Virus record (IMG/VR): IMGVR_UViG_2529292905_000029
From: a virus
Taxonomy: Duplodnaviria > Heunggongvirae > Uroviricota > Caudoviricetes
Direction: 5' to 3' (one strand)
Length of the DNA stretch: 22,134 nt
This document shows positions 1-16,885 of the stretch, in pieces; within the stretch, counting starts at the first letter, position 1, and every line of letters begins with the position of its first letter. The notes under the pieces are model-generated. The model ran no database searches. It worked only from the letters and a program-made list of their open reading frames with translations, and was not told where the DNA came from. Position numbers and translations under genes: made by a program.

Positions 1-1011
1 TTATAACGTCACTCCGCCTTTTAGTGGATTCAGAGCGACGGCATTTTGCAGATAGTCAGGCGCAAGGTGCGCATAGGCCATCGTCTGCTGAATGCTCGCA
101 TGTCCCAGAATCTGTTGCAGTGCGATTATATTGCCCCCATTCATCATGAAATGGCTTGCGAATGTATGCCGCAGGATGTGGGTTGCCTGATTGGGTGGTA
201 TATCAGGTTTCACTCTGCGTAAAATCCCGCAAAATTTCTCATAATCAACTTTGAATAATTTGGCGCTGGCCTCCTCTTTAACTTTTTTCTCCAGTTCCTC
301 AGAAATCGGCACGGCTCGCTTTTTACCGTTTTTGGTTTTCAGGAAGGTAACCCTGCAATTTGTAATCTGTGCTGGTTTTAGCGTGGCAACTTCCGTCCAT
401 CTTCCTCCGGTGCTCAGACATAAAAGCGCGACAAGTAAGTCATCACCAGCCAAAACATTTAACAGTTTTTCGATTTCTGCTTTTTCCAGGAACGTCATTT
501 CAGGGTTGGCCTCCGCCAGTGGCGGCAGTCCGTGAATTGGGTGTTGCCCGGAAAATTCATCCAATTGAATTAATTTTGTGAACATGCCGGATAATCGGTA
601 CATGTCACGGTTTATCGTTGCGGCACTGATACCATCACGTAGTCGCATGGAACGATAATCCATCAAAGCCCTTTTGCTCATCCTGCTCACTGGTATATCA
701 CCTATGCCGCTGATGGTTTTGAGTAGATGATTAAACTCTTTTGTTCCATGCTCGTGGTTTTGCCCGTGATATTTCCACCAGATGTCCAGCAACTCACTCA
801 AAGTCCGGCGGTCTGCTCGCTGGCCTCCCCATTCTTTCTGACTGGCATTGGCGATTGTGTATCGCTCAAATGCTAGTGCTTCAGCTTTTCTTTCGAATTT
901 CCTGCGGATGCGTTTTCCGTCGCGACCGCGAGGTCTAATGTCCACTTCATAGCGACCATCATCGAGCTTCTTAATTGCCATAAGAAAGCCCTCCGGCGCT
1001 GTATTCACCAT
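1..1011 (-). CDS. int: Phage integrase, tyrosine recombinase (P2 Int-like), 336 aa
   Basis: Complete minus-strand ORF whose stop codon is window bases 1-3. C-terminal region has tyrosine-recombinase-like HxLRHT (HILRHTFASH) and a conserved Tyr region (MAYAHLAP). Sits beside the repressor gene at the prophage end, as in P2. Confidence 0.9.
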   Translation of the reverse strand: MVNTAPEGFLMAIKKLDDGRYEVDIRPRGRDGKRIRRKFERKAEALAFERYTIANASQKEWGGQRADRRTLSELLDIWWKYHGQNHEHGTKEFNHLLKTISGIGDIPVSRMSKRALMDYRSMRLRDGISAATINRDMYRLSGMFTKLIQLDEFSGQHPIHGLPPLAEANPEMTFLEKAEIEKLLNVLAGDDLLVALLCLSTGGRWTEVATLKPAQITNCRVTFLKTKNGKKRAVPISEELEKKVKEEASAKLFKVDYEKFCGILRRVKPDIPPNQATHILRHTFASHFMMNGGNIIALQQILGHASIQQTMAYAHLAPDYLQNAVALNPLKGGVTL

Positions 1012-1050: not shown

Positions 1051-1344
1051 TTAGCCAATCCTTTTCGCGGAGTGGTTGGACTCTGTTGACTCTGGCCCAA
1101 TGTGCGCGAGAGCCGGTGCGATTTGTCCTGCGTCCGGCGCGGTTTTATCTGTCATAAGCCATAGAGCATATTTTTGGAATGTGGGATGCATAGTGATTTT
1201 TAGCAAAGCTGTGCCACCGGGTTCAAAGTTTCCTCCTTCATATTTTTTAAGTGTGCTTAGCGGTAACTCTATGATTTCACAGAATTTTGATTGGCTTAGC
1301 CCTTCAGCCTCACGCAAGGCCTTAATCTTTTCGCTTAATTTCAT
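1051..1344 (-). CDS. C: Immunity repressor, P2 C-like, 97 aa
   Basis: Small minus-strand ORF between int and the divergently transcribed cox-like gene. N-terminal HTH-like segment (EKIKALREAEGLSQSKFCEI) and a C-terminal QIAPALAH segment resembling P2-family C repressors. Size close to P2 C (99 aa). Confidence 0.8.
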   Translation of the reverse strand: MKLSEKIKALREAEGLSQSKFCEIIELPLSTLKKYEGGNFEPGGTALLKITMHPTFQKYALWLMTDKTAPDAGQIAPALAHIGPESTESNHSAKRIG

Positions 1345-1465
1345 TTGACATGGTGCCTATATAGGGACTAAATTCCCTCAAAACTGGAACCTATATAGGT
1401 TCCATTGATTTGAGAATAAACCAGCATCTAAACGGTTTTGAGTGGTTTAGAAAGGGCTGGATCCT
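1345..1465. promoter_or_regulatory. Lysis/lysogeny switch region between C and cox (expected Pc/Pe promoters and operators)
   Basis: 121-bp AT-rich intergenic region between divergent repressor and cox genes. Contains CCTATATAGG at 1356-1365 and the perfect 18-bp palindrome GGAACCTATATAGGTTCC at 1386-1403, both with TATATA cores. Promoter and operator assignment is by analogy to P2/186 switches. Confidence 0.55.
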
Positions 1466-1753
1466 ATGAGGGTACCATATATGGACGCTGAAAATTATGT
1501 GATTCAGTATCCGCTTGATGCGGTTCATGTGGATAAATTTGCTGATTTATTAGGGAAGCCAAAGACAGCCGTCAGTGAAATGGTGAAGGCAAATAAATTA
1601 CCAATTATTGAATTGCGTGATCCTTGCAAACCGAAGGCTCGTGCCGGTGAAAAATGGGTTTTCATTCCTGAGTTTAATCGCGCTGTACGTGAGGCGTTTT
1701 ATAACCGACCGGTTGAACAGCGTGATGCATGGCTTTTGTGGATGGGGTTGTGA
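1466..1753 (+). CDS. cox: Cox-like excisionase / early regulator, ~90-95 aa (start may be Met at 1481)
   Basis: First gene of the rightward early operon. Size close to P2 Cox (91 aa). C-terminal ...RDAWLLWMGL resembles the P2 Cox C-terminus as I recall it. Confidence 0.75.
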   Translation: MRVPYMDAENYVIQYPLDAVHVDKFADLLGKPKTAVSEMVKANKLPIIELRDPCKPKARAGEKWVFIPEFNRAVREAFYNRPVEQRDAWLLWMGL

Positions 1754-1755
1754 TT

Positions 1756-1926
1756 ATGAATGAGCCGCGTTGTATTGCTCAGTTATTGCGTAACGAAAGC
1801 CCCAGGGCGATTGACTTCACCATCACCCACGGTAAGGGGCGTAAGGGAATCATTATCCGCACCAAAAAACAGAGTCCGTTAAAAAAGGCTCTGACCTTTC
1901 TGAAAAGCCGGAGGGTATGGAAATGA
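1756..1926 (+). CDS. Small hypothetical early protein, 56 aa (P2 orf78 position)
   Basis: ORF starting at ATG 1756, three bases after the cox stop. Its TGA (1924-1926) overlaps the ATG of the next gene (ATGA at 1923-1926). Basic composition; no recognised motif. Confidence 0.4.
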   Translation: MNEPRCIAQLLRNESPRAIDFTITHGKGRKGIIIRTKKQSPLKKALTFLKSRRVWK

Positions 1927-2423
1927 CAGTGATGACGCTCAATCTCGTTGAAAAACAGCCAGCAGCTATGCGCCGGATAATTGGCAAGCATCTTGCCGTC
2001 CCTCGCTGGCTGGATACATGTGATTATTATAATCAGATGATGGAGCGCGAACGGCTAACGGTTTGCTTTCATGCACAGTTAAAACAGCGTCACGCAACGA
2101 TGCGTTTTGAAGAAATGAACGACGTCGAACGTGAACGACTCGTTTGTGCAATTGATGAATTGCGTGGCGCATTCTCAAAACGCCGTCAGGTCGGCGCAAG
2201 TGAGTATGCATATATTAGTTTTTTAACAGTCAGTCAGCGTCGTACTTTATTTATGCATGCGGGATTGACAGAAAAAGAATTCAATCAGCCGTACTGGCGA
2301 ATTAATGAAGAATCATGTTACTGGCGTGATGCTTTATTCCGTGCATTACGTGAATTATTCAGTCTGTTTGAGTATGCACCGACAATTCTGACGTCGGTAA
2401 AACCAGAGCAATATCTGCATTAA
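1923..2423 (+). CDS. B: Replication protein B-like (P2 gpB position, helicase-loader function in P2), 166 aa
   Basis: ORF from ATG 1923 with GGAGGG six bases upstream. 166 aa, the same length as P2 B, and in the same position between cox and A. No diagnostic motif seen. Confidence 0.7.
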   Translation: MTVMTLNLVEKQPAAMRRIIGKHLAVPRWLDTCDYYNQMMERERLTVCFHAQLKQRHATMRFEEMNDVERERLVCAIDELRGAFSKRRQVGASEYAYISFLTVSQRRTLFMHAGLTEKEFNQPYWRINEESCYWRDALFRALRELFSLFEYAPTILTSVKPEQYLH

Positions 2424-2486
2424 ATAATTAACCAGAGTTTTTAACGCACTTAATCGTGCGGGGCTTCTTTTTGCCTGGAGAAAGTC

Positions 2487-2711
2487 ATGCATACAGTTTC
2501 TGAAAATCAGTGCGGTAAATACGCATTACTGCTGCAACAGGCCAGAACCGAAGCACAGGCCGACGCTGCGACGCGCTTTTCTTCTCATCTTGACGCCATG
2601 ATTCGCCACATCACAAAGGCGGAGTTATCCCGCGTGGAGATAGTTGAGCTGCTCAGTCAGGAGTCGGAAAAATTTCACAATATCGGATTGTCTCGCGGGG
2701 AGGTGCTTTGA
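2487..2711 (+). CDS. Hypothetical early protein, 74 aa
   Basis: ORF in the B-to-A interval, co-directional, followed by overlapping stop/start with the next gene. Corresponds to the orf80-83 block of P2 by position. Confidence 0.5.
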
Positions 2712-3013
2712 TGTCCTGTTCTCGTTCGGTTGTATTACTGAATAACGCCTTAAAAATCGCCGTTATGAAAAATGGTGATTTGTCTCTTATTCAACTTGGT
2801 ATTGATAAAGAGAAGCGCGAAATAACTGAATCTGTTATCGCGATTTATCAGAGTGAATTAAACCTCCTGTCTGATGTGGTCAATTTACTTGTTAAACGCG
2901 CTGTATTCCACAAGCAAATTTCCTCAGTGGATGAACTGACAAAATTAACGACAGAACTCGCCAGTTATTGCGCTGATGAATTTAAGAAGCTGAACGACAA
3001 AAGGAGCTGGTAA
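2708..3013 (+). CDS. Hypothetical early protein, 101 aa
   Basis: Start overlaps the upstream stop (ATGA at 2708-2711). Its stop overlaps the next start (TAATG at 3010-3015). Confidence 0.5.
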
Positions 3014-3237
3014 TGCCGGACAACGTGGATTTTATTCAGGAACAACAGGCTGAATTACTGGAGCGCCAGATTAACGCGGCAAGGGTAAAACATTGCGGTG
3101 TTTCTGCGCTGGTTTGCGAAGAGTGTGACGCGCCAATACCTGCTGCCCGTCGTGCGGCTTATCCGTCAGCCACGCGTTGTGTTTCCTGTCAGTCAGTCTT
3201 TGAAGCAAAAAACAAACATTACCGGAGAACGGCATGA
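3013..3237 (+). CDS. TraR/DksA-family C4 zinc-finger protein, 74 aa
   Basis: Two CxxC pairs (CEECDAPIP...CVSCQ) with the spacing typical of DksA/TraR-type zinc fingers. Translationally coupled to its neighbours. Confidence 0.7.
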   Translation: MPDNVDFIQEQQAELLERQINAARVKHCGVSALVCEECDAPIPAARRAAYPSATRCVSCQSVFEAKNKHYRRTA

Positions 3238-3509
3238 GTATTCGTATTGAAATTGGCGAACGTTATGTCGTTACCAGTGACAGCTTTCAGTTTATTCTCC
3301 ACGAGAAAAAGAGAGCGGAAAGCGGTAAAAACGCCGGTCAGGAATGGCTGGCGGTGGTTGGTTATTACCCGAAATTAGGCCAGCTCGTTTCCGGCCTGAT
3401 GCATCACGATATTCTGACCGGAAGCGCAAAATCTTTTGCTGATTTAAACGCGCAGGTTGAGCAACTCAGCAAGCGTTGTTCAGAGGCTTTTGGCTCATAT
3501 GGCCGTTAA
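3234..3509 (+). CDS. Hypothetical early protein, 91 aa
   Basis: ORF with overlapping start (ATGA at 3234-3237). Its stop (3507-3509) overlaps the ATG of gene A at 3499. Confidence 0.5.
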   Translation: MSIRIEIGERYVVTSDSFQFILHEKKRAESGKNAGQEWLAVVGYYPKLGQLVSGLMHHDILTGSAKSFADLNAQVEQLSKRCSEAFGSYGR

Positions 3510-5784
3510 AGCCTCCGGGCGTTTTGTCCCTCCGTCAGCATTTACCGCAGGCACCGGTAAGGCGTTTACCGGTGCTTATGCATGGAACGCGCCACGCGAG
3601 GCTGTCGGGCGCGAAAGACCTCTTACACGTGACGAGATGCGTCAGGTGCAAGGTGTTTTATCCACGATTAACCGCCTGCCTTACTTTTTGCGCTCGCTGT
3701 TTACTTCACGCTATGACTACATCCGGCGCAATAAAAGCCCGGTGCACGGGTTTTATTTCCTCACATCTACTTTTCAGCGTCGTTTATGGCCGCGCATTGA
3801 GCGTGTGAATCAGCGCCATGAAATGAACACCGACGCGTCGTTGCTGTTTCTGGCAGAGCGTGACCACTATGCGCGCCTGCCGGGAATGAATGACAAGGAG
3901 CTGAAAAAGTTTGCCGCCCGTATCTCATCGCAGCTTTTCATGATGTATGAGGAACTCTGCGATGCATGGGTTGATGCGCATGGTGAAAAAGAATCGCTGT
4001 TTACGGATGAGGCGCAGGCTCACCTCTATGGTCATGTTGCTGGCGCTGCACGTGCTTTCAATATTTCCCCGCTCTACTGGAAAAAATACCGTAAAGGACA
4101 GATGACCACGAGGCAGGCATATTCTGCCATTGCCCGCCTGTTTAACGATGAGTGGTGGACTCATCAGCTTAAAGGCCAGCGTATGCGCTGGCATGAGGCG
4201 TTACTGATAGCTGTCGGGGAGGTCAATAAAGACCGTTCTCCTTATGCCAGTAAACACGCCATTCGTGATGTGCGTGCGCGCCGCCAGGCAAATCTGGAAT
4301 TTCTTAAATCGTGTGACCTTGAAAACAGGGAAACCGGCGAGCGCATCGACCTTATCAGTAAGGTGATGGGCAGTATTTCTAATCCTGAAATTCGCCGGAT
4401 GGAGCTGATGAACACCATTGCCGGTATTGAGCGTTACGCCGCCGCAGAGGGTGATGTGGGGATGTTTATCACGCTGACCGCGCCGTCAAAGTATCACCCG
4501 ACACGTCAGGTCGGAAAAGGCGAAAGTAAAACCGTTCAGCTTAATCACGGCTGGAACGATGAGGCATTTAATCCAAAGGATGCGCAGCGTTATCTCTGCC
4601 GTATCTGGAGCCTGATGCGCACGGCATTCAAGGATAATGATTTACAGGTCTACGGTTTGCGAGTCGTCGAGCCACACCACGACGGAACGCCGCACTGGCA
4701 TATGATGCTTTTTTGTCATCCACGCCAGCGTAACCAGATTATCGAAATCATGCGTCGCTATGCGCTCAAAGAGGATGGCGACGAAAGAGGAGCCGCGCGA
4801 AACCGTTTTCAGGCAAAACACCTTAACCGGGGCGGTGCTGCGGGATATATCGCGAAATACATTTCAAAAAACATCGACGGCTATGCACTGGATGGTCAGC
4901 TCGATAACGACACCGGCAGGCCGCTGAAAGACACTGCAGCGGCTGTTACCGCATGGGCGTCAACGTGGCGCATTCCGCAATTTAAAACGGTTGGCCTGCC
5001 GACAATGGGGGCTTACCGTGAACTACGCAAATTGCCTCGCGGCGTCAGCATTGCTGATGAGTTTGACGAGCGCGTCGAGGCTGCACGCGCCGCCGCAGAC
5101 AGTGGTGATTTTGCGCTGTATATCAGCGCGCAGGGCGGGGCAAATGTCCCGCGCGATTGTCAGACTGTCAGGGTCGCCCGTAGTCTGTCGGATGACGTTA
5201 ACGAGTACGAGGAAGAAGTCGAGAGAGTGGTCGGCATTTACGCGCCGCATCTCGGCGCGCGTCATATTCATATCACCAGAACGACGGACTGGCGCATTGT
5301 GCCGAAAGTTCCGGTCGTTGAGCCTTTGACTTTAAAAAGCGGCATCGCCGCGCCTCGGAGTCCTGTCAATAACTGTGGAAAGCTCACCGGTGGTGATACT
5401 TCGTTACCGGCTCCCACACCTTCTGAACACGCCGCAGCAGTGCTTAATCTGGTTGATGACGGTGTTATCGAATGGAATGAGCCGGAGGTCTTGAGGGCGC
5501 TCAGGGGTGCATTAAAACACGACCTGAGAACGCCAAACCGTCAGCAAAGAAACGGAAGCCCGTTAAAACCACATGAAATTGCACCATCGGCCAGACTGAC
5601 CCGGTCTGAACGATTGCAAATCACCCGTATCCGCGTTGACCTTGCTCAGAACGGTATCAGGCCGCAGCGATGGGCACTTGAGGCGCTGGCGCGTGGCGCG
5701 ACCGTAAATTATGACGGGAAAAAATTCACGTATCCGGTCGCTGATGAGTGGCCGGGATTCTCAACAGTAATGGAGTGGACATGA
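3499..5784 (+). CDS. A: Rolling-circle replication initiator endonuclease (P2 gpA), 761 aa
   Basis: Start MAVKASGRFVPP at ATG 3499. HUH-type metal-binding motif (PHWHMMLF) and active-site tyrosine motif (GYIAKYISKN) of rolling-circle initiators. Length equals P2 A (761 aa). Confidence 0.92.
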   Translation: MAVKASGRFVPPSAFTAGTGKAFTGAYAWNAPREAVGRERPLTRDEMRQVQGVLSTINRLPYFLRSLFTSRYDYIRRNKSPVHGFYFLTSTFQRRLWPRIERVNQRHEMNTDASLLFLAERDHYARLPGMNDKELKKFAARISSQLFMMYEELCDAWVDAHGEKESLFTDEAQAHLYGHVAGAARAFNISPLYWKKYRKGQMTTRQAYSAIARLFNDEWWTHQLKGQRMRWHEALLIAVGEVNKDRSPYASKHAIRDVRARRQANLEFLKSCDLENRETGERIDLISKVMGSISNPEIRRMELMNTIAGIERYAAAEGDVGMFITLTAPSKYHPTRQVGKGESKTVQLNHGWNDEAFNPKDAQRYLCRIWSLMRTAFKDNDLQVYGLRVVEPHHDGTPHWHMMLFCHPRQRNQIIEIMRRYALKEDGDERGAARNRFQAKHLNRGGAAGYIAKYISKNIDGYALDGQLDNDTGRPLKDTAAAVTAWASTWRIPQFKTVGLPTMGAYRELRKLPRGVSIADEFDERVEAARAAADSGDFALYISAQGGANVPRDCQTVRVARSLSDDVNEYEEEVERVVGIYAPHLGARHIHITRTTDWRIVPKVPVVEPLTLKSGIAAPRSPVNNCGKLTGGDTSLPAPTPSEHAAAVLNLVDDGVIEWNEPEVLRALRGALKHDLRTPNRQQRNGSPLKPHEIAPSARLTRSERLQITRIRVDLAQNGIRPQRWALEALARGATVNYDGKKFTYPVADEWPGFSTVMEWT

Positions 5785-6236
5785 TGGCAAAAATTCACGA
5801 GGTAAAGCTGCACGCAAAATATTTCGACCTTGTGCTGGAAGGAAAGAAACGCGCAGAGTTTCGGAAAAATGACCGTAATTATGAGCGCGGGGACACGTTG
5901 ATTTTGCATGAATGGGCGCAGGGTGTGTATACGGGGAGAAAGGTTGAAGCCAGGATAACAGATGTTACTGACCTGTCAGACTGGCTGGAAGACTATGTCT
6001 TGCTAAGTATTGAGCTGCTTAATACAGGCGCATATGAGATTGTGAACTGGAAAGAACTTAGTGAGCGTGGCCTGGTATTCAGAATTAATCATGAAATTAT
6101 GCATCAGCTCGGCCTTGCTGTTATGTATGAACCAGAGACGGGGATGTCTGGCGGGGCAATGGTCGCCACGGATGGAGCATGGAACTATTCAGATGAACAG
6201 ATGGAGCGTGCACAGCAAAACGGGTGGCTTGGATAA
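5784..6236 (+). CDS. ASCH/DUF3850-like (PUA-fold) protein with C-terminal extension, 150 aa
   Basis: ATG at 5784 overlaps the TGA of A (ATGATG at 5781-5786). N-terminal ~90 aa (MAKIHEVKLHAKYFDLVLEGKKRAEFRKNDRNYERGDTLILHEW...) resembles the ASCH-like DUF3850 fold. P2 has a 91-aa ORF at this position, so the ~60-aa C-terminal extension is unusual. Confidence 0.6.
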   Translation: MAKIHEVKLHAKYFDLVLEGKKRAEFRKNDRNYERGDTLILHEWAQGVYTGRKVEARITDVTDLSDWLEDYVLLSIELLNTGAYEIVNWKELSERGLVFRINHEIMHQLGLAVMYEPETGMSGGAMVATDGAWNYSDEQMERAQQNGWLG

Positions 6237-6442
6237 TGCACAGAATACCAGGCGAGATACCGCACCATAAAACTAAAAATATCAAGCTGATGGCTATTGT
6301 TCAGCGTTTACAGCGGATTATGGTCAACGAAAATCTGACGCCCGATGAGCTGGTCGGGTGTGCCGAAATAGTCCGGGATAATTACGGGCGGCTTAACTAT
6401 ATCGGTCAGTCCAGAGTTGCGCCACCACCACGCAGACGATAG
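6224..6442 (+). CDS. Small hypothetical ORF, 51-72 aa (possible start at 6290)
   Basis: ORF track only. Convergent with the minus-strand cassette. No motif, weak support. Confidence 0.3.
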   Translation: MAWIMHRIPGEIPHHKTKNIKLMAIVQRLQRIMVNENLTPDELVGCAEIVRDNYGRLNYIGQSRVAPPPRRR

Positions 6443-6514
6443 AGAACGCCGCCAGTCGTGAAACTTGTTTTCAGGGCTGGCGGGGTTGAACAATGAGCGT
6501 AGCGAGGCGTTAGC

Positions 6515-6754
6515 CTATTTATTAAAAAATTCTAGAAGTGTAATTCCATTGGCTCCAAGGCTTACAAAGCCTTCAATACTATTAATTGATGTGATTGTCT
6601 TTTTCAGAATGTTCTTTAGCTTTGAGCCTTCTTCGGTCGTAGTTATTACTTCGTTAAATTGCTCAGACATACAAGCATGCCCCATTGTGGCTTCTGTTGC
6701 TGAAATTATTGGCTCAATACCAGTTATTTCATAGTCGTCAAAAGCTCTAATCAT
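6515..6754 (-). CDS. Hypothetical small acidic protein, 79 aa (second gene of accessory cassette)
   Basis: Minus-strand ORF in AT-rich DNA. Its ATG (6754-6752) overlaps the TGA (6753-6751) of the upstream 165-aa ORF. Rich in D/E. No recognisable domain. Confidence 0.5.
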   Translation of the reverse strand: MIRAFDDYEITGIEPIISATEATMGHACMSEQFNEVITTTEEGSKLKNILKKTITSINSIEGFVSLGANGITLLEFFNK

Positions 6755-7248
6755 GTTGTCAATGTAATATAATATTTCTTTTTTAGGTTAATTGGGAAGT
6801 CAGAATTAATTATGGATTCCTTCAGTTCTAATAATTGCCCCTTTATTTCAATTAACTGTTCATCTTTAAGTTTTCCAATCTGACCTTTGGTCTTGAATAG
6901 GACTGATATCATCCCTAATTCATTTATGGCATTATCAGAGATTCTTTGGAGGGAATGGGACAGAGATTCTCCCAGATTTAAGTTTTCGAAAAAATCATTA
7001 ACACTGGGCCTCCAGTGTGGGGCTGTGATTTCATCTTCTGGAAAGTAGTCTTTTAATGTGTTATCTATTTTTTTAGGCAAGCTCATGATTTTGGAAATCT
7101 TATCCCATAAGATGGTTTTATTATCTTCAGAACCCTCTAATTCAAACATTTGTAATAAAGCACGCTTTACCGTAATGTTATATGGTTGTTGTGCTTTTAG
7201 CTTGGTGAAAAACTCTCGTAAGGTCAGTGCTGAATTGTCGATGTACAT
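6751..7248 (-). CDS. Hypothetical protein, 165 aa (first gene of accessory cassette)
   Basis: Minus-strand ORF in the AT-rich block, with AGG about 9 nt upstream of the ATG at 7248 and a promoter-like sequence upstream. C-terminal region looks coiled-coil-like (KLKDEQLIEIKGQLLELKESI). No catalytic motif recognised. Confidence 0.55.
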   Translation of the reverse strand: MYIDNSALTLREFFTKLKAQQPYNITVKRALLQMFELEGSEDNKTILWDKISKIMSLPKKIDNTLKDYFPEDEITAPHWRPSVNDFFENLNLGESLSHSLQRISDNAINELGMISVLFKTKGQIGKLKDEQLIEIKGQLLELKESIINSDFPINLKKKYYITLTT

Positions 7249-7290
7249 GGAAAAACCTAACAGTCAAATTATTAATAATAGAACAACAAG

Positions 7291-7319
7291 ATACTAATAA
7301 AATCTAACGTTAGTATCAA
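7291..7319 (-). promoter_or_regulatory. Candidate sigma70 promoter for the accessory cassette (TTGATA-N17-TAGTAT on minus strand)
   Basis: Reverse complement of 7314-7319 is TTGATA and of 7291-7296 is TAGTAT, separated by 17 bp. The spacer contains the perfect palindrome CTAACGTTAG (7304-7313). About 40 nt upstream of the ATG at 7248. Confidence 0.45.
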
Positions 7320-7450
7320 TAACGAATATATGCGCACACTGCATGAAAATGCATTTTCTTTTAAGGGGGCGATATATCGAGTCGAGTCATGGTTGATGCG
7401 ACATTAGTGTGCTGGTGCAACTGCATTCAAACAGACCCATGAAGCGGGCG

Positions 7451-7469
7451 GGCGAGGCGGGGAAAGCAC
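7451..7469. other. cos site: 19-nt cohesive-end sequence GGCGAGGCGGGGAAAGCAC
   Basis: Exact 19-mer that I recall as the P2 cohesive end, found at the expected map position between the accessory slot and the 3' end of Q. A G/T-rich tract follows at about 7540-7610. Confidence 0.7.
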
Positions 7470-7610
7470 TGCGCGCTGGCGGTGGTGCTGATTTTATTTT
7501 TTCAGCGTCTCAGCGCGTCGTGACGGCGCTTAGTCTGCCCGTTGAGGCGTTGGTGTGTCTGCGGGGTGTTTTGTGCGGTGGTGAGCGTGTGAGGGGGTGA
7601 TGACGGGGTG

Positions 7611-7633
7611 TAAAAAAGCCGCCCGCAGGCGGC
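7611..7633 (-). terminator. Rho-independent terminator downstream of Q
   Basis: On the minus strand: GCCGCC-TGCG-GGCGGC stem-loop followed by TTTTTTA, starting about 5 nt after the Q stop codon. Confidence 0.6.
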
Positions 7634-7638
7634 GATGT

Positions 7639-8673
7639 TCAGTCGTTGTCAGTGTCCAGTGAGTAGTTTTTAAAGCGGATGACCTCCTGACCGAGCCAGC
7701 CGTTTATCTCGCGGATCCTGTCCTGTAACGGGATAAGCTCATTGCGGACAAAGACCTTTGCCACTTTCTCAATATCTCCCAGTGACCCGACGTTCTCCGG
7801 CTTGCCGCCCATCAACTGAAAGGGGATGCGGTGTGCGTCCAGCAGGTCAGCGGCGCTGGCTTTTTTGATATTAAAAAAATCGTCCTTCGTTGCCACTTCA
7901 CTGAGCGGGATAATTTTAATGCCGTCAGCTTTCCCCTGCGGGGCATAGAGAAACAGGTTTTTAAAGTTGTTGCGACCTTTCGACTTAACCATGTTTTCGC
8001 GGAGCATTTCGATATCGTTGCGATCCTGCACGGCATCGGTGACGTACATGATGTATCCGGCATGTGCGCCATTTTCGTAATACTTGCGGCGGAACAACGT
8101 GGCCGACTCATTCAGCCAGGCAGAGTTAAGGGCGCTGAGATATTCCGGCAGGCCGTACAGCTCCTGATTAATATCCGGCTCCAGCAGGTGAAACACGGAG
8201 CCGGGCGCGAAAGGTGTCGGCTCGTTGAAGGACGGCACCCACCAGTAAACATCCTCCTCCACGCCACGGCGGGTATATTTTGCCGGTGAGGTTTCCAGTC
8301 TGATGATCTTACCGGTGGTGCTGTAACGCTTTTCCAGAAACGCATTACCGAACACCAGAAAATCCAGCACAAAGCGGCTGAAATCCTGTTGTGAAAGCCA
8401 CGGATGCGGGATAAATGTCGAGGCCAGAATATTACGTTTGACGTAAATCGGTGAGCTGTGATGCACGGCAGCACGCAGACTTTTTGCCAGACCGGTAAAG
8501 CTGACCGGCGGCTCATACCATCTGCCGTTACTGATGCATTCGACGTAATCCAGAATGTCACGGCGGTCGAGTACCGGCACCGGCTCGCCAAAGGTGAATG
8601 CCTCCATTTTCGGGGCGCTGGCGGTCATTGTTTTTGCCGCAGGTTGCGGTGTTTTCCCTTTTTTCTTGCTCAT
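7639..8673 (-). CDS. Q: Portal protein (P2 gpQ), 344 aa
   Basis: Minus-strand ORF of 344 aa, the same length as P2 Q. Adjacent to and overlapping the terminase large-subunit gene; immediately inside cos, as in P2. Confidence 0.9.
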   Translation of the reverse strand: MSKKKGKTPQPAAKTMTASAPKMEAFTFGEPVPVLDRRDILDYVECISNGRWYEPPVSFTGLAKSLRAAVHHSSPIYVKRNILASTFIPHPWLSQQDFSRFVLDFLVFGNAFLEKRYSTTGKIIRLETSPAKYTRRGVEEDVYWWVPSFNEPTPFAPGSVFHLLEPDINQELYGLPEYLSALNSAWLNESATLFRRKYYENGAHAGYIMYVTDAVQDRNDIEMLRENMVKSKGRNNFKNLFLYAPQGKADGIKIIPLSEVATKDDFFNIKKASAADLLDAHRIPFQLMGGKPENVGSLGDIEKVAKVFVRNELIPLQDRIREINGWLGQEVIRFKNYSLDTDND

Positions 8674-10445
8674 CAGTAAAACTCCAGAATGGTGGATGTC
8701 AGCGGGGTGCTGATACCGGCGGTGAGTGGCTCATTTAACAGGGCGTGCATGGTCGCCCAGGCGAGGTCGGCGTGGCTGGCTTCCTCGCTGCGGCTGGCCT
8801 CATAGGTGGCGCTGCGTCCGCTGCTGGTCATGGTCTTGCGGATAGCCATAAACGAGCTGGTGATGTCGGTGGCGCTGACGTCATATTCCAGACAGCCACG
8901 ACGGATAACGTCTTTTGCCTTGAGCACCATTGCGGTTTTCATTTCCGGTGTGTAGCGGATATCGCGCGCGGCGGGATAGAACGAGCGCACGAGCTGGAAC
9001 ACGCCGACACCGAGGCCGGTGGCATCAATACCGATGTATTCGACGTTGTATTTTTCGGTGAGTTTGCGGATGGATTCAGCCTGAGTGGCAAAGTCCATGC
9101 CTTTCCACTGGTGACGCTCAAGTATCCTGAATTTGCCACCGGCCACCACCGGCGGTGCCAGCACCACGCATCCGGCGCTGTCGCCACGGTGTGACGGGTC
9201 GTAACCAATCCATACCGGGCGGGAGCCGAACGGATTGGCGGCAAAGGGTGCATAGTCTTCCCATTCTTCCAGCGTGTCGATCATGCAGCGTTGCAGCTCC
9301 TCGAACGGGAACACCGATGCCTTGTCGTCAACAAATTCACACATGAACAGGTTTTTAAAATCGTCGGCGCTGTTTTCGCGTTTGAGCTGCTCAATGTCGA
9401 ACAGCGTGCAGCCACCTTTCAGGGCGTCCTCAATGGTGACAATCTGCCGCCACTGGCCGTCTGCACAGAGAAGCCCATCGGCAAGGGCGTTATGACTGAC
9501 GTCGATTTCCACGCGTTCGGCGGCGCTGGCGCGTCCCCGGTTGAACAGTTCACCCGACCAGAACGGGTAGGCGTCGTGCGCCAGCGTGGACGGGGTGGAG
9601 AAATAGGTCGAGCGCAGGTGACTCTGTGAGGCCATACCTGATGCCACCTTACGCAGTACCTGAAAATTCGGTATCCAGAAAATCTCGTCGACGTACAGGT
9701 CGCCGTTATGGCTCTGCGCGGTGTTGGAGTTGGTGCCGAGAAAAATCAGTTTTGCGCCGTTATTGCCCAGGACAATCGGGTCACCGGTCAGGTCAACGTC
9801 AACCAGCCGGGCAAAGGCGATGATGTATTCGCGGAACACATACGCCTGCGTTTTACTGGCCGACAGAAAAATCTGGTTATGACCGGTTTTCAGGGCGCGC
9901 AGCAGCGCCTCGCGGGAAAAATAAAACGTCGCGCCAATCTGGCGGGATTTCAGGATATCGCGGATGCGGTGCTCAAGCCCGGCGCGATACCAGTGCAACT
10001 GATAGTCGAAAGACTGCTCAAAGAAAATCTGCTCCAGCTTTTCGATAGCCTCGTCACTGAAAAAATTCTTTTTCGGTTTGCGACGCCCGCCTTTGTTGCG
10101 GTTAGCGACGTTCGGATTAAGGTCTGCCTCGTTGCCGGTCTGGCTGTAACGGTTGACCCGTGCCAGCCGTTCAATCTGGCGTCCGAGCAGGTCAATTTCC
10201 TTGAAGTCACCGCCGGTTTTCTGCGGTTTGATGATGAGCTGGGTCAGCCGCGCTTCCAGACTCATTTCGACACGGCTGATGGGGGCAACGCTGTCCCAGC
10301 CGTCGCGCTGTTTCCAGCTCTGCACCGTCGGGCGTTTCATCTGCAACATGGCGGCAATCTGCGGCACGGAAAACCCCTGCCAGTACAGCAGCGCCGCCTG
10401 ACGACGCGGGTCGTGTAAAAGAGTGGTGTCTGTGGTGATGGTCAT
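8673..10445 (-). CDS. P: Terminase large (ATPase) subunit (P2 gpP), 590 aa
   Basis: Minus-strand ORF. Start taken at MTITTD (ATG 10445) with GAGG upstream, giving 590 aa as in P2 P. The ORF track's longer 600-aa version begins 30 nt upstream. Divergent from the O-N-M-L operon, as in P2. Confidence 0.9.
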   Translation of the reverse strand: MTITTDTTLLHDPRRQAALLYWQGFSVPQIAAMLQMKRPTVQSWKQRDGWDSVAPISRVEMSLEARLTQLIIKPQKTGGDFKEIDLLGRQIERLARVNRYSQTGNEADLNPNVANRNKGGRRKPKKNFFSDEAIEKLEQIFFEQSFDYQLHWYRAGLEHRIRDILKSRQIGATFYFSREALLRALKTGHNQIFLSASKTQAYVFREYIIAFARLVDVDLTGDPIVLGNNGAKLIFLGTNSNTAQSHNGDLYVDEIFWIPNFQVLRKVASGMASQSHLRSTYFSTPSTLAHDAYPFWSGELFNRGRASAAERVEIDVSHNALADGLLCADGQWRQIVTIEDALKGGCTLFDIEQLKRENSADDFKNLFMCEFVDDKASVFPFEELQRCMIDTLEEWEDYAPFAANPFGSRPVWIGYDPSHRGDSAGCVVLAPPVVAGGKFRILERHQWKGMDFATQAESIRKLTEKYNVEYIGIDATGLGVGVFQLVRSFYPAARDIRYTPEMKTAMVLKAKDVIRRGCLEYDVSATDITSSFMAIRKTMTSSGRSATYEASRSEEASHADLAWATMHALLNEPLTAGISTPLTSTILEFY

Positions 10446-10618
10446 GAATACCTCGCCGTGATGAATACACGGCAAGGCTACTGAGTCGCGCCCCGCGATT
10501 CGCTAAGGTGCTGTTGTGTCAGTGATAAGCCATCCGGGACTGATGGCGGAGGATGCGCATCGTCGGGAAACTGATGCCGACATGTGACTCCTCTAATCAC
10601 TATTCAGGACTCCTGACA
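10446..10618. promoter_or_regulatory. Divergent late-promoter region between P and O
   Basis: 173-bp intergenic region between divergently transcribed P and O. In P2 this interval holds the Ogr-dependent late promoters. Contains the inverted repeat GCCGTG-N7-CACGGC (10455-10473) and an imperfect TGT-N12-CAC element (10583-10600). Confidence 0.45.
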
Positions 10619-11473
10619 ATGGCAAAAAAAGTCTCAAAATTCTTTCGTATCGGCGTTGAGGGTGACACCTGTGACGGGCGTGTCATCAGTGCGCAGGATA
10701 TTCAGGAAATGGCCGAAACCTTTGACCCGCGAGTCTATGGTTGCCGCATTAACCTGGAACATCTGCGCGGCGTCCTGCCTGACGGTATTTTTAAGCGTTA
10801 TGGCGATGTGGTCGAACTGAAGGCCGAAAAGATTGACGATGATTCGGCGCTGAAAGGCAAATGGGCGCTGTTTGCGAAAATCACCCCGACCGATGACCTT
10901 ATCGCGATGAACAAGGCCGCGCAGAAGGTCTATACCTCAATGGAAATTCAGCCGAACTTTGCCAATACAGGCAAATGTTATCTGGTGGGTCTGGCCGTCA
11001 CCGATGACCCGGCAAGCCTCGGCACGGAATACCTGGAATTCTGCCGCACGGCAAAACACAACCCCCTGAACCGCTTCAAATTAAGCCCTGAAAACCTGAT
11101 TTCAGTGGCAACGCCCGTTGAGCTGGAATTTGAAGACCTGCCTGAAACCGTGTTCACCGCCCTGACCGAAAAGGTGAAGTCCATTTTTGGCCGCAAACAG
11201 GCCAGCGATGACGCCCGTCTGAATGACGTGCATGAAGCGGTGACCGCTGTTGCTGAACATGTGCAGGAAAAACTGAGCGCCACTGAGCAGCGCCTCGCTG
11301 AGATGGAAACCGCTTTTTCCGCACTTAAGCAGGAGGTGACTGACAGGGCGGATGAAACCAGCCAGGCATTCACCCGCCTGAAAAACAGTCTCGACCACAC
11401 CGAAAGTCTGACCCAGCAGCGCCGCAGCAAGGCCACCGGTGGTGGCGGTGACGCCCTGATGACGAACTGCTGA
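10619..11473 (+). CDS. O: Capsid scaffolding protein (P2 gpO), 284 aa
   Basis: Start taken at MAKKVSKF (ATG 10619), giving 284 aa as in P2 O. First gene of the head operon. Helical, Ala/Glu-rich C-terminal half typical of scaffold proteins. Confidence 0.88.
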   Translation: MAKKVSKFFRIGVEGDTCDGRVISAQDIQEMAETFDPRVYGCRINLEHLRGVLPDGIFKRYGDVVELKAEKIDDDSALKGKWALFAKITPTDDLIAMNKAAQKVYTSMEIQPNFANTGKCYLVGLAVTDDPASLGTEYLEFCRTAKHNPLNRFKLSPENLISVATPVELEFEDLPETVFTALTEKVKSIFGRKQASDDARLNDVHEAVTAVAEHVQEKLSATEQRLAEMETAFSALKQEVTDRADETSQAFTRLKNSLDHTESLTQQRRSKATGGGGDALMTNC

Positions 11474-11531
11474 CCGGCGTCAGTCAGTCCGGGAAAACCT
11501 TCACGATTAACCCTTAATTTCAGGAAAAACT

Positions 11532-12605
11532 ATGCGCCAGGAAACCCGCTTTAAATTTAATGCCTACCTGTCCCGTGTTGCCGAACTGAACGGCATCGAC
11601 GCCGGTGATGTGTCGAAAAAATTCACCGTTGAACCGTCGGTCACCCAGACCCTGATGAACACCATGCAGGAGTCCTCTGACTTTCTGACCCGCATCAACA
11701 TTGTGCCGGTCAGCGAAATGAAAGGGGAAAAAATTGGTATCGGTGTCACCGGCTCCATCGCCAGCACCACCGACACCGCCGGTGGCACCGAGCGTCAGCC
11801 GAAGGACTTCTCGAAGCTGGCGTCAAACAAGTACGAATGCGACCAGATTAACTTCGATTTTTATATCCGCTACAAAACGCTGGACCTGTGGGCGCGTTAT
11901 CAGGATTTCCAGCTCCGTGTCCGTAACGCCATTATCAAACGCCAGTCCCTTGATTTAATCATGGCCGGTTTTAACGGCGTGATGCGTGCCGAAACCTCTG
12001 ACCGCAGCAGCAATCCGATGCTGCAGGATGTGGCGGTCGGCTGGCTGCAGAAATACCGCAATGAAGCCCCGGCGCGCGTGATGAGCAAGGTTACTGACGA
12101 GGAAGGGCACACCACCTCTGAGGTTATCCGCGTGGGTAAGGGCGGTGATTATGCCAGCCTTGACGCACTGGTGATGGATGCGACCAACAACCTGATTGAG
12201 CCGTGGTATCAGGAAGACCCTGACCTTGTGGTGATTGTGGGACGTCAGCTACTGGCGGACAAGTATTTTCCCATCGTCAACAAGGAGCTGGACAACAGCG
12301 AAATGCTGGCCGCTGACGTCATCATCAGCCAGAAACGCATCGGTAACCTGCCGGCGGTACGCGTCCCGTACTTCCCGGCGGATGCGATGCTCATCACAAA
12401 GCTGGAAAACCTGTCCATCTACTACATGGATGACAGCCATCGCCGCGTGATTGAGGAAAACCCGAAACTCGACCGCGTGGAGAACTACGAGTCAATGAAC
12501 ATTGATTACGTGGTGGAAGACTACGCCGCCGGTTGTCTGGTGGAAAAAATTAAGGTCGGTGATTTCTCCACACTGGCTAAAGCGACCGCAGAGCCGGGAG
12601 CGTAA
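11532..12605 (+). CDS. N: Major capsid protein (P2 gpN), 357 aa
   Basis: 357 aa, the same length as P2 N. Position after the scaffold gene. Confidence 0.92.
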   Translation: MRQETRFKFNAYLSRVAELNGIDAGDVSKKFTVEPSVTQTLMNTMQESSDFLTRINIVPVSEMKGEKIGIGVTGSIASTTDTAGGTERQPKDFSKLASNKYECDQINFDFYIRYKTLDLWARYQDFQLRVRNAIIKRQSLDLIMAGFNGVMRAETSDRSSNPMLQDVAVGWLQKYRNEAPARVMSKVTDEEGHTTSEVIRVGKGGDYASLDALVMDATNNLIEPWYQEDPDLVVIVGRQLLADKYFPIVNKELDNSEMLAADVIISQKRIGNLPAVRVPYFPADAMLITKLENLSIYYMDDSHRRVIEENPKLDRVENYESMNIDYVVEDYAAGCLVEKIKVGDFSTLAKATAEPGA

Positions 12606-12608
12606 CCG

Positions 12609-13352
12609 ATGACGAGTCCCGCACAGCGCCACATGATGCGGGTCTCGGCAGCGATGACCGCGCAGCGGGAAGCCGCCCCGCTGCGACATGCAACTGTCTA
12701 TGAGCAGATGCTGGTTAAGCTCGCCGCAGACCAGCGCACACTGAAAGCGATTTATTCAAAAGAGCTGAAGGCCGCGAAAAAACGCGAACTGCTGCCGTTC
12801 TGGTTGCCGTGGGTGAACGGCGTGCTGGAGCAGGGCAAAGGTGCACAGGATGACATTCTGATGACGGTCATGCTGTGGCGTCTGGATACCGGCGATATTG
12901 CCGGTGCGCTGGAGATTGCCCGTTATGCCCTGAAGTACGGTCTGACCATGCCGGGTAAACACCGCCGCACCCCGCCGTACATGTTCACCGAGGAGGTGGC
13001 GCTCGCGGCCATGCGCGCCCACGCTGCCGGTGAGTCTGTGGATACCCGCCTGCTGACGGAGACCCTTGCACTGACCGCCACGGCAGACATGCCTGATGAA
13101 GTGCGCGCAAAGCTGCACAAAATCACCGGTCTGTTTCTGCGTGACGCTGGTGATGCCGCCGGTGCGCTGGCTCACCTGCAACGTGCGACACAGCTCGACT
13201 GTCAGGCAGGCGTCAAAAAAGAGATTGAACGACTGGAGCGGGAGCTGAAACCGAAGCCGGAGCCGCAGCCCAAAGCGGCCACCCGCGCCCCGCGTAAGAC
13301 CCGGAGCGTGACACCGGCAAAACGTGGACGCCCGAAAAAGAAAGCCAGTTAA
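12609..13352 (+). CDS. M: Terminase small / endonuclease subunit (P2 gpM), 247 aa
   Basis: 247 aa, the same length as P2 M. Basic C-terminal tail (KRGRPKKKAS). Position after N. Confidence 0.88.
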   Translation: MTSPAQRHMMRVSAAMTAQREAAPLRHATVYEQMLVKLAADQRTLKAIYSKELKAAKKRELLPFWLPWVNGVLEQGKGAQDDILMTVMLWRLDTGDIAGALEIARYALKYGLTMPGKHRRTPPYMFTEEVALAAMRAHAAGESVDTRLLTETLALTATADMPDEVRAKLHKITGLFLRDAGDAAGALAHLQRATQLDCQAGVKKEIERLERELKPKPEPQPKAATRAPRKTRSVTPAKRGRPKKKAS

Positions 13353-13451
13353 CAACCGAATGCGCCCCGCGCCAGGGCGGCACGCCGGTCAGTGAGGGTG
13401 AATCACCTGACACTGCACCGGCGTCCACCGCCCGACTTTTCAGAGGTAGTC

Positions 13452-13961
13452 ATGATGACGCTGATTATTCCGCGAAAGGAGGCTCCCGTGTCCGGTGAGG
13501 GTACGGTGGTCATCCCGCAACCGGCAGGCGACGAGCCGGTGATTAAAAACACGTTCTTTTTTCCCGATATCGACCCGAAGCGCGTCCGGGAACGTATGCG
13601 CCTTGAGCAGACCGTCGCCCCTGCCCGTCTGCGTGAGGCCATCAAGTCAGGCATGGCTGAAACGAATGCGGAGCTGTACGAGTACCGCGAACAGAAAATT
13701 GCCGCCGGTTTTACGCGTCTGGCTGACGTCCCGGCGGACGACATCGACGGTGAAAACATCAAAGTTTTTTACTACGAGCGCGCCGTGTGTGCGATGGCGA
13801 CCGCGTCGCTTTATGAGCGTTATCGCGGCGTGGATGCCAGTGCGAAAGGCGACAAGAAGGCCGACAGCATTGACAGCACCATTGATGAGCTGTGGCGGGA
13901 TATGCGCTGGGCGGTGGCGCGCATCCAGGACAAGCCACGCTGCATCGTGAGTCAAATCTGA
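13452..13961 (+). CDS. L: Head completion / stabilisation protein (P2 gpL), 169 aa
   Basis: Start taken at ATG 13452 (MMTLIIPRKE), giving 169 aa as in P2 L. Its stop overlaps the next start at 13959-13963. Confidence 0.85.
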   Translation: MMTLIIPRKEAPVSGEGTVVIPQPAGDEPVIKNTFFFPDIDPKRVRERMRLEQTVAPARLREAIKSGMAETNAELYEYREQKIAAGFTRLADVPADDIDGENIKVFYYERAVCAMATASLYERYRGVDASAKGDKKADSIDSTIDELWRDMRWAVARIQDKPRCIVSQI

Positions 13962-14164
13962 TGAAGACCTTTGCGCTACAGGGCGACACGCTCGACGCCA
14001 TTTGTGTCCGGTATTACGGGCGCACTGAGGGCGTGGTCGAGACTGTGCTCGCCGCAAATCCGGGACTGGCTGAACTGGGTGCGGTGCTGCCGCACGGCAC
14101 CGCCGTCGAACTGCCCGACGTTCAGACCGCGCCCGTGGCTGAAACTGTCAATCTGTGGGAGTAA
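13961..14164 (+). CDS. X: Tail protein X (P2 gpX), 67 aa
   Basis: ATG at 13961 overlapping the L stop. 67 aa, as in P2 X. Immediately precedes the holin gene. Confidence 0.8.
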   Translation: MKTFALQGDTLDAICVRYYGRTEGVVETVLAANPGLAELGAVLPHGTAVELPDVQTAPVAETVNLWE

Positions 14165-14167
14165 CGC

Positions 14168-14449
14168 ATGACAGCAGAAGAAAAAAGCGTCCTGTCGCTT
14201 TTCATGATTGGGGTGCTGATTGTTGTCGGCAAGGTGCTTGCCGGTGGTGAACCCATCACCCCGCGTCTGTTTATCGGGCGCATGTTGCTCGGTGGTTTTG
14301 TCTCGATGGTTGCCGGTGTTGTTCTGGTGCAGTTTCCTGACCTGTCACTGCCTGCGGTGTGCGGCATCGGCTCCATGCTGGGTATCGCCGGTTATCAGGT
14401 GATTGAGATTGCCATTCAGCGCCGCTTTAAGGGCAGGGGGAAACCGTAA
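14168..14449 (+). CDS. Y: Holin (P2 gpY), 93 aa
   Basis: 93 aa with hydrophobic transmembrane stretches (LFMIGVLIVVGKVLAGG, LLGGFVSMVAGVVLV) and a charged C-terminus. Immediately upstream of the endolysin gene. Confidence 0.85.
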   Translation: MTAEEKSVLSLFMIGVLIVVGKVLAGGEPITPRLFIGRMLLGGFVSMVAGVVLVQFPDLSLPAVCGIGSMLGIAGYQVIEIAIQRRFKGRGKP

Positions 14450-14946: not shown

Positions 14947-14960
14947 ACGGAGTAAACACC

Positions 14961-15799: not shown

Positions 15800-15944
15800 C
15801 CCGCAGACGAACGGCGATTTAAGTGCCGATATCCGGCAGCTTGAGAACGCGCTGGCACGCTGTGCCAGCCAGGTAAAAATGATTAAACACTGTCAGGACG
15901 AAAACGATGCTCAAACCCGACAGCCTGCGCAGGGCGCTGACTGA
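15654..15944 (+). CDS. lysC: Rz1-like outer-membrane lipoprotein spanin LysC, 96 aa, embedded out of frame in lysB and overlapping R
   Basis: Signal peptide with a lipobox-like LCAGC, Pro-rich mature region. Starts inside lysB in another frame and extends into R, the known P2 lysB/lysC arrangement. Confidence 0.7.
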   Translation: MKTKIFAAGTVLSCLMLCAGCTSAPPALTPVIVPNTCPKVSLCPMPGSDPQTNGDLSADIRQLENALARCASQVKMIKHCQDENDAQTRQPAQGAD

Positions 15945-16819: not shown

Positions 16820-16885
16820 TTGTGCCATTCCTGACACCTCATCGTCACATTGCCGCCGGTATGACCCGGCGGCATCCTTCCCGTT

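Follow-up and report, generated by a model that had tools for sequence, protein, structure and literature searches.

A pair of palindromic direct repeats as the probable C operator in the lysis–lysogeny switch of a P2-like prophage of the L-413C immunity type

Two palindromes with TATATA cores lie between the repressor gene C and cox in the window (the whole 22,134-nt stretch of DNA analysed here), and the question they raise is what reads them. The P2 repressor is described as binding short direct repeats, and an earlier note, made from the sequence, took palindromic operators as a sign of a different immunity type. The surrounding genes are those of a P2-type switch. C, transcribed leftward and followed by int according to the ORF list, encodes a full-length homologue of P2 C (PDB 2XCJ/2L49, E = 1.9e-21 over residues 3–97 by phmmer), while the product of the opposing gene matches Pfam family PF10743, Phage_Cox (E = 1e-23), and P2 Cox (PDB 4LHF, E = 3.8e-20). 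cox heads the rightward early operon, in which orf78, B and A come next and are 97% identical to P2, and the gene order int–C/cox–orf78–B–A is the same as in P2. Two gene starts differ among the available records and reading frames. In related records int starts at MAIKKLDD, about position 981 here, and an alternative cox start at 1466 would give a protein of 95 aa. The cox ATG equivalent to 1481 is the start in most annotated records and in WPhi, and the intergenic region probably runs to 1480. We consider it highly likely that this region is the switch between lysis and lysogeny in a Peduovirus (P2-like) prophage with L-413C-type immunity, and that the two copies of CCTATATAGG within it constitute the C operator, O1 and O2 (Table 1).

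Table 1 Positions of genes, predicted signals and repeats at the left end of the window
Feature	Position	Strand	Basis
int, tyrosine integrase	1..1011	-	ORF as listed, 336 aa
C, immunity repressor, 97 aa, single HTH domain	1051..1344	-	Pfam HTH_3
Predicted -35 of Pe, TTGACA, abutting the C start codon	1345..1350	+	Promoter scan
O1, candidate half-site CCTATATAGG in the -35/-10 spacer	1356..1365	.	WPhi O1 position
Predicted -10 of Pe, TAAATT, between O1 and O2	1369..1374	+	Promoter scan; aligns with WPhi -10 TATATT
Long imperfect dyad/hairpin centred on O2	1372..1417	.	Inverted-repeat search, RNA fold
O2, candidate operator within the 20-bp TGGAACCTATATAGGTTCCA	1385..1404	.	WPhi O2 position
Pc (weak lysogenic promoter) and Cox-binding sites, expected region (inferred)	1405..1480	-	Resemblance to WPhi
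cox, Cox excisionase and Pc repressor, 90 aa	1481..1753	+	Pfam Phage_Cox
Right-hand breakpoint of the exchanged int–C–cox module	1755	.	blastn vs AF063097

The immunity module and the rest of the window have different affinities. C, Cox and Int are 42%, 36% and 48% identical to their P2 counterparts, 56%, 79% and 96% identical to those of WPhi, and 100%, 99% and 96% identical to those of L-413C. To the right of the switch, positions 1755–6004 correspond to P2 26290–30539 at 97.3% identity (blastn, AF063097), and positions 7451–16821 are 97.8% identical to canonical P2 (AF063097). The int–C–cox DNA of P2 is unrelated to that of the window at the nucleotide level, and blastn against AF063097 finds weak, patchy similarity within int only to the left of position 1755. 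The breakpoint itself is sharp and falls at the cox/orf78 junction, one base before orf78. A diverged int–C–cox segment in a genome that is otherwise about 97–98% P2 fits modular exchange of that segment, as had been suspected from the sequence, and the companion proposal of a non-P2 immunity module is borne out both by the protein identities and by the absence of the P2 half-site operator. The region does not have high identity to canonical P2 (AF063097); the one 'P2' that does carry the same module, at 99.9%, is KC618326, a record named 'Escherichia phage P2' (Peduovirus magyaro; prophage of E. coli T22).

The novelty that the earlier note implied is contradicted by the distribution of the module. 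Positions 1012–1800 recur at 99% identity or more in 18 phage records, including L-413C, R18C, HQ103, vB_YpM_50, FSL SP-004 and P2_4B2; 415 of 5,426 complete E. coli genomes (7.6%) carry C and the switch at 99% identity or more, and the exact C protein sequence is found on at least 1000 contigs. Over 121 bases the switch agrees with that of L-413C at 117 (four differences), and it is identical to that of HQ103. By the criterion of PMC3448106, a C protein at least 95% identical and an alignable C–cox spacer place the window in the L-413C immunity group, and most other members have the same spacer or one with a single base changed. Nilsson et al. 2011 list L-413C as a reference phage (PMC3448106), and within the P2-like coliphages seven immunity classes and further candidates have been recognised, with C at least 95% identical inside a class (PMC3448106, PMC1904263). 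As such, the observation rediscovers a known phenomenon, in which P2-like coliphages are about 97% identical in their structural and replication genes while the int–C–cox modules that define their immunity classes, at least seven to ten in number, are swapped (PMC3448106, PMC1904263). The module has already been sequenced in the Yersinia phage L-413C and is common in E. coli, and the finding, real as it is, is largely ordinary. Immunity classes I–VII were reportedly defined by Karlsson et al. 2006, and Liu & Haggard-Ljungquist 1999 are said to have mapped the WPhi switch. What the window adds is of modest follow-up value and lies in three features: the operator substitutions of L-413C and R18C, the dyad symmetry of the half-sites, and a conserved dyad centred on O2.

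The decamer CCTATATAGG occurs at 1356–1365 and again at 1390–1399, with centres at 1360.5 and 1394.5 as located by a sequence script. The position first given for the left copy and the 34-bp separation of the centres are thereby confirmed. The left copy widens to an imperfect 16-bp palindrome (1353–1368; 14 of 16 positions symmetric). The right copy is enclosed by the perfect palindrome TGGAACCTATATAGGTTCCA, which had been described as 18 bp long (1386–1403) and is indeed perfect, though it extends over 20 bp (1385–1404), and it stands at the centre of a 46-bp imperfect dyad. With up to one mismatch allowed, CCTATATAGG has exactly these two matches in the 22,134 bases against an expectation of 0.23, with no further site anywhere in the 22 kb, and two such matches are reached in 3 of 100 shuffles. 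When the 136-nt intergenic region is shuffled 20,000 times, an exact direct repeat of 10 nt or more arises in 131 cases and a palindrome of 20 bp or more in 4. Palindromes of at least 18 bp appear somewhere in the window in 33 of 300 dinucleotide shuffles.

The position of the two repeats relative to the early promoter points to their role. The sole sigma-70-like match of the promoter scan is TTGACA–18 nt–TAAATT (10 of 12 matches), and the only sigma-70-like -10 thus sits between the two copies of CCTATATAGG, which bracket it and do not form it. The final T of this proposed -10 is altered in one prophage variant (1374 T>C). The same arrangement is found in WPhi, where TTGACA-6-TATTGGTGAC-24-TATTGGTGAC corresponds to TTGACA-5-CCTATATAGG-24-CCTATATAGG in the window, so that in both switches 10-bp half-sites placed 34 bp centre to centre flank the -10 (PMC1904263, PMC1904268). 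The Pe construct of WPhi carries the same TTGACA hexamer in the same place, abutting the C start (PMC1904263). The -10 and discriminator are homologous in the window and WPhi (TAAATTCCCTCAAAA and TATATTCCCGTCAAAA, respectively), with a shared discriminator/leader motif TTCCC..TCAAAA, and the gene order is shared as well. Where the two differ is in the half-site, which is palindromic in the window and asymmetric in WPhi. The WPhi half-site TATTGGTGAC is absent from the window, and a C protein 56% identical to that of WPhi lies below the 95% required for immunity class III; given this identity and the different half-site, the two phages are expected to be heteroimmune. Read from the sequence, such a layout is to be expected of a WPhi sibling with a different immunity. 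The palindromes repeat the same 10-mer directly and in the WPhi register, and the supposed contrast between a palindromic operator and the direct-repeat operators of the P2 family is therefore false. It is very probable that the C repressor uses the palindromes as its operator at the early promoter, in keeping with the first half of an earlier suggestion; the second half, that the operators overlap -10 elements, does not hold, since the TATATA cores flank the -10.

Less can be said of the opposing promoter. A consensus scan of the minus strand and inspection by eye yield no convincing -35/-10 pair and no sigma-70 consensus match for Pc. Positions 1456–1478 look, by eye, like the surroundings of the WPhi Pc start, which published work places 60 nt from O2 (PMC1904263). 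The exact -10 and the transcription start are predictions, and the placing of Pc is provisional.

Other switches of the family share parts of this layout. In P2 (class I; PDB 2XCJ) the repressor has a homologous fold and length and two half-sites span the Pe -10; in P2, Pe faces a convergent Pc with Cox as counter-repressor (PMC2995052). The P2 half-sites are 8-bp, non-palindromic copies of GTTTAGAT that lie 22 bp apart, unlike those of the window. The window contains a single inverted GTTTAGAT at 1426–1433, outside Pe, whose first base is polymorphic in relatives, and together with a C protein 42% identical to that of P2 this sets it outside class I. Two exact copies of CCTATATAGG, 34 bp apart and flanking the predicted Pe -10, fit the P2-type pattern of a repeated half-site spanning an element of Pe. 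In P2 Hy dis, 8-bp half-sites 26 bp apart are arranged around the -35 (PMC1904268), compared with 10 bp, 34 bp and the -10 in the window; judged by the criteria of PMC1904268, among them a C with about 63% identity to that of P2, as against 42% here, the window lies outside the Hy dis class. As of 2007, P2, P2 Hy dis and WPhi were the only phages of this kind with located operators (PMC1904268).

An unrecognised specificity class, with a palindromic operator mechanism closer to that of 186 or lambda, would account for half-sites that are perfect palindromes, unlike the half-sites of P2, P2 Hy dis and WPhi (PMC2995052), and the CI/Apl switch of 186 does combine convergent promoters with inverted-repeat operators (PMC1904263, PMC1904268). 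However, 186 CI is a two-domain protein of about 190 aa, about twice the size of the C protein here, and works with several operators, distal ones among them, and with an establishment promoter that requires cII; the window has none of these. The window's C is a 97-aa, single-domain HTH homologue of P2 C, in contrast to two-domain CI (PMC1904263), it has two sites only, in the WPhi layout, and the genes that follow cox are P2 orf78 and B. A module identical to that of L-413C (PMC3448106) and carried by 7.6% of the complete E. coli genomes further contradicts novelty, and we regard such a class as highly improbable.

A different reading takes the TATATA cores as promoter -10 elements, for example of a leftward promoter at O2, or as nucleation sites for H-NS. 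TATATA resembles a -10, TTTATT-17-TATATA can be read on the minus strand at O2, and the switch is AT-rich, with a GC content of 40% against 53% for the window. In HQ103, whose switch is identical, H-NS attaches to fragments carrying Pe and Pc and keeps Pe silent at 21 °C (PMC10321612), so at least one further protein binds the AT-rich cores. Against this reading, the promoter scan yields only TTGACA-18-TAAATT, which lies between the cores, and TATATA lacks the conserved final T of the -10 hexamer. Likewise, the Pc start of WPhi is located 60 nt from O2 and not at O2 (PMC1904263). Neither a promoter nor an H-NS site requires two identical GC-flanked 10-mers at the exact WPhi operator positions, or predicts the class-specific sequence change at both positions in heteroimmune relatives. 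Cores that serve as -10 elements or H-NS sites are, on this evidence, improbable, and the C operator remains the reading that we follow.

Variation within the class bears on the operator directly. We compared the 136-nt switch across 46 records, comprising 36 IMG/VR contigs with C 99–100% identical and 10 phage records, and found it nearly invariant. Position 1426 is a common A/G polymorphism, and three single prophage variants fall outside the repeat consensus. Among the 46 records, L-413C and R18C alone have substitutions within or next to the repeats, and in both the C gene is intact. L-413C carries 1356 C>A in O1 and 1402 C>A in the O2 arm, along with 1373 T>C, while in R18C the changes are 1364 G>T (O1) and 1390 C>T (O2). 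Four of the five private substitutions of these two phages fall within the 24 symmetric consensus positions (GnnCCTATATAGGnnC per site) out of 136 (P about 0.004). L-413C is a lytic, clear-plaque mutant of the temperate phage L-413 (PMC2893161, PMC3448106), and R18C is described as virulent in a report that offers no cause (PMC6823313). Published operator mutants have established that repression survives single half-site mutations and is relieved by double mutations (PMC1904268); the alteration of L-413C and R18C at or beside both sites parallels this rule that both half-sites must be damaged. The substitutions thus offer a sequence-level explanation for lytic growth despite an intact C, both for the plague-diagnostic L-413C and for the 'virulent' R18C, and they would assign the operator of the widespread L-413C class to specific bases. 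The window lacks these changes and has the wild-type form of the operator found in prophages. In HQ103 the switch is identical to that of the window and C is frameshifted; supplied in trans, an intact C of the L-413C class blocks plaque formation by HQ103 (PMC10321612). Taken together, these observations are a strong case for assigning the repeats to the operator.

A mechanism can be proposed on this basis. The 97-aa C protein, encoded immediately to the left, would recognise both O1, in the -35/-10 spacer, and O2, just downstream of the predicted Pe start. C dimers, presumably acting cooperatively at two sites separated by three turns of the helix, would switch Pe off. With Pe off, cox and the replication genes would stay silent and lysogeny would be maintained, and repression of Pe would confer immunity solely to phages of the same class.

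How a half-site can be at once a direct repeat and a palindrome is clarified by relatives of the class. Relatives with a C of 60–86% identity, in which the recognition helix (STLxKYE) is unchanged or similar, carry CCCATATAGG, CCTATTTAGG, CCTAATTAGG or TCCTATATAGGA at both positions, and sites of the type CCYAWWTRGG occupy the same two positions in relatives with the same or a near-identical recognition helix. In one relative (C 86% identical; L040), O2 reads as the exact reverse complement of O1 for 12 nt or more (GGAACCCATATAGG, by eye), and in another (C 82% identical; L079) the two sites form a 17-nt direct repeat. Of 31 class representatives, 9 have their best match between O1 and O2 in direct orientation and 16 in inverted orientation, while 6, being self-palindromic, match equally well in both. 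The dyad symmetry of the half-sites is a property of the sub-clade and not an accident of one phage. Two-fold symmetry allows a single C dimer to read each half-site symmetrically and makes the pair both a direct and an inverted repeat; judged from the sequences, the pattern of orientations agrees with the binding of one symmetric C dimer to each site. This arrangement bears on the puzzle raised by the crystal structure of P2 C, in which a symmetric dimer has to read asymmetric repeats (PMC2995052). By analogy, the window suggests the arrangement of C.Esp1396I, which places one dimer on each of two directly repeated palindromic sites (PMC2995052), with a site spacing of 15 bp as against 34 bp here. 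C.Esp1396I and the repressors P22 c2 and 434, all small HTH dimers on dyad-symmetric sites, are cited as structural neighbours of P2 C; the window's C has no detectable sequence kinship to C.Esp1396I or the lambdoid repressors, and the likeness is one drawn from the literature.

The palindrome at O2 is longer than that at O1, and a second conserved element can account for the difference. In nearly every WPhi- or L-413C-like class, O2 lies inside a longer inverted repeat that begins 1–3 nt past the -10. The arms of this dyad vary between classes while their complementarity is kept, as in CCCTCATTGG/CCAATGAGGG, CAAAAGG/CCTTTTG and CCCGAAAAGG/CCTTTTCGGG. In WPhi the arms CAAAAGG and CCTTTTG flank an O2 that is not palindromic, and deletion of the left arm leaves repression intact (PMC1904263), a result by which we rejected the arms as part of the WPhi C site. 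A left arm that is dispensable for repression by C makes the dyad separable from C binding, and it follows that the 20 bp of the window need not all be operator. The perfect 20-mer would then reflect the coincidence, in the window's class, of a palindromic half-site with the conserved dyad, and O2 would exceed O1 in length because a dyad or hairpin conserved in its own right surrounds it.

The pairing of the arms was quantified with a 13-pair helix, which was drawn by hand and scored on a MAFFT alignment of the 31 class representatives that had not been fitted to structure; since the helix was taken from these very sequences, it carries less weight as evidence. Across these heteroimmune classes 72% of helix cells are paired, compared with 52% when the register is slid by ±1, and Watson–Crick pairs fill 260 of the 398 cells. 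Changes on both sides of the pair are seen at 12 of 13 positions, and the covariation score of 0.40 exceeds the 0.18 of shuffled alignments, with none of 500 shuffles reaching 0.40. The dyad of the window folds with a z of about -5 on either strand. RNAalifold, run on the same MAFFT alignment of 31 representatives, returns no consensus structure, probably as a result of register shifts of 1–2 nt. G-U and A-C mismatches number 27 and 42 and show none of the asymmetry that would identify an RNA, and the two strands do not differ in stability (18 vs 13, p = 0.17); RNA and DNA, and the strand concerned, are thus not discriminated by these measures. An Rfam search of positions 1000–2000 gives no family match. 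A search of the papers available turned up no stem-loop described in the P2 switch, which is no proof of absence. An intrinsic terminator at O2 was considered and rejected, there being no T-run after the stem in most other classes.

These data raise the alternative that the O2 palindrome is primarily a nucleic-acid hairpin, at the 5′ end of the Pe RNA, in the Pc/C mRNA leader, or in both, and that its likeness to O1 is secondary. The stable fold on either strand, a stem maintained at the same position through differing sequences in 31 heteroimmune classes, and the separability of the dyad in WPhi (PMC1904263) are all in its favour. Replacement of the WPhi flanks, including the right arm and Pc, by vector led to an unexplained rise of about 100-fold in the Pe reporter (PMC1904263), which could be related. 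A hairpin leaves unexplained, however, the identical 10-mer at O1, the WPhi-like 34-bp spacing and the paired substitutions of the lytic variants. Furthermore, RNAalifold finds no consensus structure and the helix that was counted is a hand-drawn one, the mismatch and strand comparisons do not distinguish RNA from DNA, Rfam has no match, and the outer stem lies between the -10 and +1 and so would be absent from the Pe RNA. A hairpin is also compatible with the operator explanation and not exclusive of it. We regard a primarily structural O2 as possible and lean against it.

A combination of the two, in which the half-sites of the sub-clade are true dyads (GnnCCTATATAGGnnC) that bind one C dimer each and the O2 palindrome is in addition an RNA-level hairpin selected separately, is a tentative and rather doubtful proposal. 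Were it true, recognition of non-palindromic direct repeats would be a peculiarity of P2, WPhi and P2 Hy dis and not the rule of the family. Candidate roles for the O2-centred dyad include a structure in the C mRNA leader, a structure at the 5′ end of the early RNA, and pairing between the overlapping convergent transcripts. A hairpin at O2 would in that case act on the Pe and Pc transcripts through their stability, through sense–antisense pairing or through control of C translation, and would be a layer of the P2-type switch for which we found no description in the literature searched. The conserved dyad centred on O2 might also explain the roughly 100-fold effect of the flanks on Pe of WPhi (PMC1904263).

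A long inverted repeat centred on the operator half-site O2 begins 1–3 nt past the −10 element of the predicted early promoter Pe and recurs at the equivalent position in WPhi and other relatives (see table). Its sequence varies between heteroimmune classes while the pairing is kept: 72% of cells pair, compared with 52% when the register is slid by ±1, and the covariation score is 0.40, against 0.18 for shuffles. The z value is about −5, with both strands alike. A limited literature search found no description of this repeat. In WPhi, Pe reporter activity rose about 100-fold in one construct, an effect left unexplained (PMC1904263). Comparison of that report with the WPhi switch places the end of the construct directly after O2, so that the leftward repressor promoter Pc and the right-hand arm of the conserved dyad are both missing. 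This makes the dyad a candidate for the "interfering phage sequence" behind the WPhi Pe reporter effect.

The orientation of the operator units differs even among close relatives. Upstream of the repressor gene C, the units of loci L040 and L041 are inverted, each matching the reverse complement of the other for 12 nt or more, whereas those of locus L079 form a direct 17-nt repeat, all while the C recognition helix stays the same. Across the 31 heteroimmune class representatives, the units are direct in 9, inverted in 16 and self-palindromic in 6. As such, judged from these counts, "direct repeats" is not a family-wide rule for these operators. The P2 operator half-site GTTTAGAT is present as a single inverted copy (1426–1433), in the half of the switch on the Pc side. 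The match is probably fortuitous, since its first base, position 1426, is a common A/G polymorphism among relatives.

The two lytic phages of this immunity class that have an intact C gene, L-413C and R18C, both show a substitution within O1 together with a second one within or next to O2, at the window equivalents of 1356 and 1402 for L-413C and of 1364 and 1390 for R18C. No such paired O1 and O2 substitutions occur among the prophage copies of the L-413C-type class compared. From sequence, the pairs look like an operator-virulence genotype and could account for the clear-plaque or virulent phenotype of these phages.

The record KC618326 / NC_041848 (species Peduovirus magyaro), which bears the name "Escherichia phage P2", has the L-413C-type immunity module at 99.9% identity, a module that differs from the canonical P2 type; its name is thus a trap when P2 identity is judged from the top BLAST hit. 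The start of cox is ambiguous between 1466, which gives a 95-aa ORF, and the ATG at 1481, which is preceded by GAGG at a distance of six bases. WPhi Cox, the 90-aa protein clusters at NCBI and 7 of the 10 phage records begin at the counterpart of 1481, and the sequence near 1466 resembles non-coding WPhi DNA around Pc.

Elsewhere, the window also departs from P2. Unrelated DNA (6005–7421) replaces the P2 orf91/tin/old region between gene A and cos, where P2-like phages typically carry morons or defence cargo. Baseplate gene W is interrupted by an insertion, which probably leaves this prophage copy defective. In the tail-fibre gene H region, similarity to P2 is 93% through 20823 and falls abruptly beyond, with only one 171-bp patch (67%) in 20824–22134, in keeping with the mosaic tail fibres known from P2-like phages.

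Features of the switch and of regions differing from P2 (window coordinates)
Feature	Position	Strand	Remarks
Long inverted repeat centred on O2	1372–1417		equivalent position in L003 (WPhi), L040–L066 and L079–L101
DUF3850/ASCH-domain protein	5748–6236	+	encoded at the orf91/tin/old replacement
165-aa ORF	6751–7248	−	without Pfam match; in the orf91/tin/old replacement
1.6-kb insertion relative to P2	17796–19409		P2 coordinate 11216/7, within gene W
514-aa IS3-family-like transposase	17825–19369	−	HTH_Tnp_1 and rve; inside the 1.6-kb insertion
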